Shown here: positions 1-951 of the stretch, one piece after another
Layout: each line of letters opens with the position of its first letter
Position numbering within the stretch: position 1 is the first letter of the stretch
Assembly (NCBI RefSeq): GCF_003334385.1
Contig: NZ_QOWN01000141.1
Source of the DNA: Escherichia coli
GTDB taxonomy: Bacteria > Pseudomonadota > Gammaproteobacteria > Enterobacterales > Enterobacteriaceae
Reading direction: 5' to 3' (one strand)
Length of the DNA stretch: 951 nucleotides
Notes under the pieces: model-generated
Databases searched by the model: none
What the model saw: the letters and a program-made list of their open reading frames with translations, nothing else
Told to the model about the DNA's origin: nothing
Program-made: the position numbers and the translations under genes

Positions 1-45
1 CCCCTGCAGCGGGTCATAATAGCGGTGGCGGTTGTAATACAGGCC
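1..45 (-). other. Start of the Rhs repeat-associated core terminal motif ([15 protein letters not shown]), truncated by the window edge
   Basis: Seen in sequence: codons 303-317. Established knowledge: in Rhs, TcC and teneurin-type YD proteins the YYxxRxRYYDPxxGR motif immediately precedes the conserved DPxGL core boundary, after which the variable C-terminal toxin begins. Confidence 0.8.
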
Positions 46-951
46 GGACTCCTCATCATACTGCTGCCCCGGCAGGCGGATAAGCTGCTGCAGCTGATGC
101 GGGTTCTCTTCATTCAGCAGGTTGCCCCATTCATCATATTCTGCGCACCACGCTGTTGCCCCTTCCGTGCTGATGAGCGCCAGCGGCAGGCCGCGATGGT
201 CGCAGTGGTACAGGTGGATTTTTCGCGCCGGCGTGTACACCGGGTCCATCTGGTTTTGCATCTGCTCCACGGTCAGGCCGCACGATGCCAGCCAGCGGCG
301 GCTTTCCTCACTCACCCGGTCAGCCAGGATTTCACTTTCCAGCCGGTCGAGCATCTGCACCAGCACCGGCGGGAACACCACACTGCCACCGTCTTCGCCG
401 CCGGACTGCTGAAGGGTATCCGCCAGGCTGCGGCGCTGCGTTTTCGCCAGCTCACCGGTGGCGGTTTCAACCCTGATGAGTGGCGTGAAGCTCCCCGGCT
501 GATAAATCGTCTGGATGCGGGTTCTGTCGTTCTGTATCGTGGTCAGGCGGTCGCCGTCCCAGCCGTACCAGGTCACTTGCGGTTTCCGTGACAGCGACAT
601 CCAGCCCGTCAGGTCCCGTTCACGCCGCCACACCCGTTTTGCCACCCTGCGGCCCAGCGGGTCGTAAAGATAGCGACTTTCGACCAGCGGCTCTTCATAT
701 TGTGTCCGCGTGTAGTGCACCAGCCGGTGCTGACTGTCGTAATGGTACCGGTGAGTCCGCTCATCATCCGTGCGGATAACCCCTTCCGGGATGAGGTCGG
801 TTTTCTCTGTCAGCCTGCCGTGACGGTCATACCGGTAAAGATAGTGCGCGTCACGGGCGATACGGTTATCCGGCCACATGCTGAGGGTGCTGTCCGGGTG
901 CAGCTCCGGGTCGGGCAGGCGGTTACCTGCCGGGTCTGTGGCATACGGGAT
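1..951 (-). CDS. rhs: Rhs-family protein (YD-repeat polymorphic toxin core), internal fragment; 5' and 3' ends both outside the window
   Basis: Seen in sequence: the reverse complement read in frame from position 951 gives 317 codons with no stop: [317 protein letters not shown]. It contains repeated YxYDxxGRL-type (YD) motifs and ends in the RYYDP motif typical of the Rhs repeat-associated core. Established knowledge: this motif series matches the enterobacterial Rhs core as I recall it. The paralog (rhsA, B, C, D type) cannot be resolved from 951 bp, so the symbol is given at family level only. The ORF track lists no minus-strand ORF, presumably because this frame has no stop inside the window. 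Confidence 0.93.
115..144 (-). other. YD-repeat motif (protein level): [10 protein letters not shown]
   Basis: Seen in sequence: codons 270-279; YDxxGxL pattern. Confidence 0.65.
187..216 (-). other. YD-repeat motif (protein level): [10 protein letters not shown]
   Basis: Seen in sequence: codons 246-255; Y-x-x-D-x-x-G-L spacing matches the YD repeat. Confidence 0.65.
241..420 (-). other. YD-free segment within the Rhs core (Gly/acidic stretch followed by a helix-prone stretch)
   Basis: Seen in sequence: codons 178-237, [60 protein letters not shown], contain no YD motif, unlike the flanking sequence. Inference: the composition (L, E, R, Q rich after a GG-E-D-GG stretch) suggests a helical insert interrupting the beta-rich repeat array. 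Confidence 0.5.
544..570 (-). other. YD-repeat-like motif (protein level): WYGWDGDRL
   Basis: Seen in sequence: codons 128-136; a degenerate YD repeat with W substituting for Y, in aromatic-x-aromatic-D-x-x-x-R-L form. Confidence 0.55.
652..672 (-). other. YD-repeat motif (protein level): YLYDPLG
   Basis: Seen in sequence: codons 94-100, followed by RRVAKRV; a YDPxG-type YD variant. Confidence 0.7.
721..747 (-). other. YD-repeat motif (protein level): YHYDSQHRL
   Basis: Seen in sequence: codons 69-77; YD core followed by a basic residue and L, the same pattern as the neighbouring repeats. Confidence 0.7.
811..843 (-). other. YD-repeat motif (protein level): [11 protein letters not shown]
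   Basis: Seen in sequence: codons 37-47 of the minus-strand frame; fits the Y-x-Y-D-x-x-G-R-L consensus of Rhs/YD repeats. Confidence 0.75.

Follow-up and report, generated by a model that had tools for sequence, protein, structure and literature searches.

Introduction

Rhs proteins are polymorphic toxins, built as a YD-repeat shell around a variable C-terminal toxin that is marked by the motif PxxxxDPxGL, and an immunity gene comes after this toxin; orphan rhs-CT/rhsI modules are located downstream of rhs genes (PMC3150448). In the model of Jackson et al. 2009, incoming tips displace the resident ones, and the tips dissociated in this way keep fragments of the core, the length of which is set by the recombination breakpoint (PMC2935791). 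For Salmonella Typhimurium LT2, Koskiniemi et al. 2014 showed how recombination between rhs-main and the orphan, within 522 bp shared at 95% identity, leads to a chimeric full-length toxin that can be deployed (PMC3967940). Furthermore, internal promoters drive the expression of Salmonella rhs toxins (PMC7043789). Rhs cores, their multiplicity, the orphan tips with a retained core, and recombination among all of these have been described since the 1980s-2010s, and as such the biology of the sequence studied here is already known, with nothing new being added to it.

Here we follow up a 951-nucleotide stretch of Escherichia coli DNA, referred to as the window throughout (i.e. the whole stretch that was analysed). 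An initial annotation had left undecided whether this sequence belongs to a full-length rhs gene or to a long orphan fragment of the core. For the DNA that was sampled, a merger of the two is the most likely answer, and what follows sets out how the ends of the window, rather than its content, lead to that answer.

Results

The window is the near-3’ interior of the Rhs core

Frame 1 of the minus strand consists of a single ORF of 317 codons that spans the full 951 bp, and many stops are found in the remaining two frames of this strand. The 317-aa product matches the NCBIfam family RHS_core (NF041261) with an E-value of 3e-207 and a score of 691 bits, colinear with positions 913-1229 of its 1261 positions; the whole-protein cut-off of this family, 2000 bits, is not reached, as is expected of a 317-aa fragment. 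The window is classifiable as part of the NF041261 core, not as a full-length member, and represents the near-3’ interior of the conserved core of the E. coli RhsA/B/C/F subfamily. Its domains (Table 1) are arranged in the order YD repeat, PF03527, TIGR03696, as in the E. coli RhsA/B/C/F core, with the TIGR03696 match scoring 37.6 bits where 32.5 is the cut-off. By this arrangement the window would encode late YD-repeat strands of the shell plus the first part of the C-terminal plug (Rhs-associated core) domain, and the residues at about 165-240, in between the matched blocks, may form a lineage-specific insert in the shell, going by the sequence.

Table 1. Features of the window and their positions, numbered from its first base.
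Feature	Position	Strand	Remarks
Internal coding segment of the Rhs core, RhsA/B/C/F type	1..951	-	sole open frame; NF041261; 99.8% to E. coli rhs genes
Left edge	1..1	.	identical contig adds 2 bases (CG); then C/T, rhsA-type versus rhsB/rhsC-type
RHS repeat-associated core domain TIGR03696 (Rhs_assc_core), aa 272-316	4..138	-	profile positions 1-42 of 76, cut by the left edge
188-aa antisense ORF, sharing the codon register of the sense frame	25..591	+	attributed to high GC3, not considered a gene
Pfam ‘RHS protein’ domain PF03527, aa 245-281	109..219	-	E 5e-16
About 76 codons (aa ~165-240) without a YD-repeat or solved-structure match	232..459	-	gap between PDB-matching blocks, inferred
YD repeat, aa 61-83	703..771	-	TIGR01643, E 2e-07
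Weaker RHS_repeat match, aa 38-52	796..840	-	PF05593, weak (E 0.066 and 0.84)
Last base common to full-length genes and the ybfO-type orphan	951..951	.	also where the recurrent 953-bp contig ends on the right

The frame lacks a start at the right edge, which is the 5’ side of the gene, as well as a stop at the left edge, the 3’ side. In a full-length core, the start codon and the N-terminal region would lie about 910 codons further upstream, and the nearest copies in complete genomes do have them. The initial annotation had taken the right edge to be the open 5’ side; this is correct, as the minus-strand frame is open through position 951, and the same is true of the 3’ side. The left edge falls short of the end of the core by some 32 codons (~95 bases), meaning that the PxxxxDPxGL motif, the toxin tip and the stop codon are all located outside the window; judged from homologous copies, the PxxxxDPxGL boundary is to be found about 23-32 codons past position 1. 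In K-12 ybfO, this motif has the degenerate form PVQYIDSMGL. Because the tip falls outside, there is no tip from which to identify the rhs copy, and with the N-terminal region, PxxxxDPxGL and the tip all missing, neither a paralogue nor full-length status is assignable.

A search of the window against Rfam returned no family. No promoter-like site was detected within it, and the one terminator-like site found is at chance level.

The antisense ORF listed in Table 1 is open in all close copies, and antisense ORFs of 353 and 397 aa are present at the equivalent place in rhsD and rhsE. We considered this ORF as a gene and rejected it, given that it is in register with a sense frame of high GC3 (0.757) and that rhsD and rhsE have similar ones. 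High GC3 makes codons that read as stops on the opposite strand rare, and a long antisense ORF is therefore most likely compositional.

Near-identical copies occur at several loci

Megablast against complete E. coli genomes gave matches in 3888 of 5426, at 20066 places in total, with a median of 5 and a maximum of 14 per genome, and a top identity of 99.8% over all 951 bases. The three best matches have 2 mismatches each, at differing positions, and are found at three separate loci, namely rhsA (yibF-yibA), rhsC (ybfA-ybfB) and the rhsF locus (rpmE-yiiX). The genes carrying them are continuous and full-length, comprising 1377, 1397 and 1354 codons. With its nearest copies at three different loci, the sequence of the window is specific to no single locus.

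In K-12, the whole window is present in rhsB (99.3%), rhsA (98.7%), ybfO (98.7%) and rhsC (98.1%), and in more divergent form in rhsE (78.7%) and rhsD (78.4%); partial copies are carried by yibJ (window 1-385) and ylbH (window 1-153). Strain MB50 has four full-window copies. All in all, this segment of the Rhs core is present in about four near-identical copies per E. coli genome, and among the 22 main and orphan copies examined, none has a stop codon within the window region. The suspicion voiced in the initial annotation, of a near-identical repeat on the scale of a kilobase, is thus confirmed by the median of 5 places per genome and by the four K-12 copies of at least 98.1% identity. It had also been stated that a single-copy locus with a continuous ORF of about 1,400 codons would argue against such a repeat: the continuous ORF does exist, the nearest copies being 1354-1397 codons long, but the locus is never single-copy.

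The ybfO-type orphan parts from the core at position 951

Downstream of rhsC and ybfB, an orphan is located that consists of an N-terminally truncated rhs fragment (in K-12 the pseudogene ybfO, b0703). It shares 1045 bp with the main gene at 97.4% identity, in line with the earlier statement that orphan modules carry a retained 3’ fragment of the core. This shared part includes the whole window, in frame and without stops (98.7% in K-12). Past position 951, full-length genes run on as GCGGATATCC..., which is core, whereas orphans run on as ATCAATGCCC..., which is AT-rich DNA from the ybfB side that is unrelated to the core. The junction between core and AT-rich DNA was base-exact at 951 in all eight orphans examined (K-12, MB50 and six further strains). 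With a query of 300 bases spanning the junction, and counting a genome if at least 80% of the query was covered, it was found in 2647 of the 5426 complete E. coli genomes (~49%). The last 300 bases of the window occur at 14324 places in these genomes; on the assumption of one junction per genome, ybfO-type orphans make up ~18% of the copies that reach 951, and the other ~82% continue as core. A count of truncated copies by subtraction was dropped, since the 300 core bases upstream of the junction gave 17283 places against 14324, i.e. a negative difference. Presumably, at megablast sensitivity the upstream query picks up more distant rhs cores as well.

Stops are absent from the core frame of the orphan in all eight strains. 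This frame is open from the junction to the orphan’s own stop, with the frame reaching just 15 codons upstream of the junction, and its first ATG lies 72 bases inside the core homology. The annotation of K-12 ybfO starts from an internal ATG (locus coordinate 6221), with the core homology starting 72 bases upstream of it, at 6149; in the RefSeq annotation of other strains, the orphan fragment begins 15 bases upstream of the junction. The orphan’s own tip and the small downstream immunity-type gene ybfC were seen in complete genomes, beyond the left edge of the window.

Two further strains deserve mention. In E. coli 7_12_30A (locus coordinates 1-2079), the annotation lists the full-length rhsC, which has an internal stop, as a pseudogene, and the core fragment of the orphan downstream of it is still open across the region that aligns with the window. 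E. coli Ecol_545 carries a rearranged hybrid locus (coordinates 1-4900) made up of a yibG-like sel1 gene, a short rhs fragment of the rhsA-locus type, ISAs1, ybfB and an orphan with the ybfO junction, the tip of which is followed by dsORF-f3 (rhsF-locus type) and IS1. Its make-up suggests that distinct rhs loci have recombined.

The ends of the contig coincide with permanent forks

The window is found verbatim, extended by ‘CG’ on the 3’ side of the gene, as contig NODE_60620_length_953 (coverage tag cov 17.69) of ENA assembly ERZ4561101, a Hadza gut metagenome. The exact 317-aa product is indexed in 80 blocks of a public assembly collection, and all 23 contigs that were read with this product measure 953 bp, although they originate from several assemblers and sample sets. 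That all contigs with this product are shorter than 2 kb is so by construction, as a product truncated in this way needs these ends, and only the recurrence in independent assemblies counts as evidence. Ten contigs that were inspected share both ends; nine of them depart from the window by 1-6 synonymous changes in the interior, and these siblings contain differing mixtures of the same variable sites.

We then compared rhs copies of K-12 and MB50 by their colinear shared 31-mers and 55-mers. At the left side, k-mers shared by rhsA and rhsB stop 2 bases left of position 1, in both strains and at both values of k. After the C/T difference at this place, further differences come in close succession up to the toxin tips, and no 31- or 55-mer is common to the copies from there on. 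At the right side, k-mers shared by ybfO and rhsB stop at 951 in K-12 and MB50, as do those of ybfO and rhsA in K-12. Differences elsewhere form bubbles, since the sequence rejoins that of one or more other copies; this applies to the orphan’s G-to-T change one base left of position 1, to rhsC at 942, and to the internal SNPs. Positions of the window known to vary include, for example, 136, 175, 271, 547, 625, 754, 757 and 808. Full-length copies go on sharing k-mers beyond 951, to at least +357 and for some pairs past +600. From the positions of these forks a non-branching path of 953 bp is predicted, with ends that are base-exact as observed.

From the geometry of the contig ends and their recurrence, we infer that the window is, with high probability, a repeat-collapsed short-read contig (953 bp, trimmed to a 951-bp gene call) in which several full-length genes and the orphan are represented together. 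Its right end would be a fork between continuing core and the AT-rich DNA after ybfB, i.e. the 5’ junction of the orphan rhs-CT module, and its left end a fork at the first difference between the rhsA type and the rhsB/rhsC type ahead of the divergent tips. The window would then stand for typically three or so full-length genes plus one long orphan fragment, where the sample would have held both continuations past 951, and where differences between the copies would have been merged by the assembler. The initial annotation had warned that assemblies can collapse repeats of this kind, and such a collapse apparently produced the window: an identical 953-bp contig exists, its ends recur, and these ends are points of permanent divergence. 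It had further held that a full-length gene and a long core fragment are not to be told apart here, which proves right, as the ybfO-type orphan keeps the whole window and splits off exactly at 951.

Allele content leans weakly towards full-length copies

In K-12 and MB50, ybfO can be told from the main genes at twelve sites, and at none of these does the window carry the orphan allele. In six further strains, however, orphans carry 6-12 and main genes 1-7 of the 12 orphan alleles. We had considered these diagnostic sites as proof of a main-type window, and downgraded them to weak evidence on account of this shuffling. The only site of the 12 that is consistent is 808, a C in all eight orphans and a T in the window. 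Furthermore, the eight orphans examined have 9-29 mismatches to the window, against 2 for the best full-length copies. Even so, main and orphan copies are not distinguishable by their alleles, and the leaning of these towards full-length copies (2 versus 9 mismatches, and site 808) is a weak one.

In strain CUVET21-147, which has the orphan nearest to the window, this orphan differs from it by 9 mismatches and the adjacent rhsC by 14. In E. coli CUVM3, no base of the 951 distinguishes rhsC from the ybfO-type orphan next to it, and both have the same 20 differences from the window; the two copies are located at 580-1530 and 2451-3401 of the locus, as direct repeats ~1.9 kb apart. Their identity implies recent gene conversion between the direct repeats, and it is gene conversion between copies that evidently shuffles the sites of main and orphan.

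Could the window then derive from full-length rhs genes only (rhsA/B/C/F-type, of about 1350-1410 codons), with no orphan involved and with some other cause for the end at 951? The nearest copies in complete genomes are indeed full-length, most copies that reach 951 (~82%) go on as core, and the T at 808 together with the 9 mismatches of even the closest orphan point in the same direction. But given that these copies share k-mers well past 951, there would be no fork at that position without an orphan, and the exact end that recurs at 951 across assemblies would be left unexplained. With main and orphan alleles shuffled, the argument from alleles is moreover a weak one, and we consider this explanation improbable.

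Conversely, the window could come from nothing but a ybfO-type orphan, as the retained core of an rhs-CT cassette that is displaced and silent. The orphan keeps exactly positions 1-951 of the window and ends there, the window in K-12 is equally similar to ybfO and rhsA (98.74% each), in CUVET21-147 the orphan is nearer to the window than rhsC is, and in CUVM3 it matches rhsC exactly. A unique path, however, would extend into the DNA on the ybfB side instead of ending at 951. The left end, too, is placed at the difference between the rhsA type and the rhsB/C type, and not at the orphan’s own G-to-T change. Adding to this a prior of ~18% and the 9 to 29 mismatches of the sampled orphans, against 2 for the closest full-length copies, an origin from the orphan alone is very hard to maintain.

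One string or several alleles

A metagenome contig does contain the string verbatim, but among the 20066 places in the 5426 complete genomes not one reaches 100% identity. This absence fits a merged consensus, and could equally mean that the string is a genuine single allele, identical in several copies of an unsampled strain. As a refinement of the collapse proposed above, the 951 bases may constitute a chimera, formed by bubble popping from the alleles of several copies, that is present in no real gene. Besides the missing verbatim match, this idea draws on the exact identity of window positions 1-887 to rhsC of MB50 and of 272-951 to rhsA of H8, on every allele of the window being present in at least one MB50 copy, and on the sibling 953-bp contigs mixing their variable sites differently. 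Against this, real copies are already mosaics as a consequence of gene conversion, and an unsampled strain could hold the string. The majority consensus of MB50’s four copies, moreover, differs from the window at 2 sites, which means that a simple majority-rule merge of MB50 does not reproduce it. We therefore put the chimera forward tentatively, as possible but on balance doubtful, whereas the collapse of several copies into one contig is in our view very probable.

Discussion

With the window being, very probably, a graph node that is common to several genes and an orphan, caution is needed in annotation: the 951-base ‘gene’ should not be counted as one gene, given a paralogue, or called either full-length or a pseudogene. 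Since rhsC and the orphan can be up to 100% identical over 951 bp, phasing of the two requires reads longer than about 1.1 kb.

So why would an orphan hold on to such a long stretch of open core? About 1 kb of core is kept, the frame is open in 8 of 8 strains, the same base-exact junction recurs in about half of the complete E. coli genomes, and homogenisation with rhsC has taken place repeatedly. These observations would be in keeping with selection preserving the core of the orphan, as opposed to a relic in decay, either as an unusually efficient homology arm for toxin switching or, by analogy with the internally expressed toxins of Salmonella, as part of a truncated Rhs product that may be expressed independently. 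We regard selection of this kind as unlikely.

Compared with the core of E. coli RhsA, RhsB, RhsC and RhsF as described by NF041261, the window has the same frame and a nucleotide identity of 98.1-99.8% to rhsA, rhsB, rhsC and the rhsF-locus genes, but holds only 317 of about 1260 core positions. The similarity to solved type VI secretion (T6SS) Rhs effectors (Tse5, 8cp6; P. protegens RhsA, 7q97; the Salmonella bongori Rhs core, 8qjd) is distant, with E-values from 7e-25 to 1e-14. These structures match the late shell repeats (aa 17-164) and the region of the C-terminal plug (aa 241-316), and the ~76 residues between these blocks have no counterpart in them. The model of C-terminal displacement (PMC2935791) is well suited to the series of retained core fragments, from about 1045 bp in ybfO to 385 bp in yibJ and 153 bp in ylbH, and nothing found here exceeds what it describes.

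The likeness to the ybfO/ybfC orphan module is that this module retains the whole window and that its 5’ junction coincides with position 951. The module also has its own tip, ybfC, and the in-frame codons ahead of the junction, none of which the window shows. Finally, the pair formed by rhs-main with rhs-CT-orphan in Salmonella Typhimurium LT2 resembles the E. coli arrangement in having, after a full-length gene, an orphan with a retained 3’ fragment of the core, although the shared region, 522 bp at 95% identity in LT2, amounts to 1045 bp at 97.4% for E. coli rhsC and ybfO, and sometimes reaches 100% over 951 bp. By analogy with LT2, the window would correspond to the homology arm of a similar recombination between main gene and orphan.
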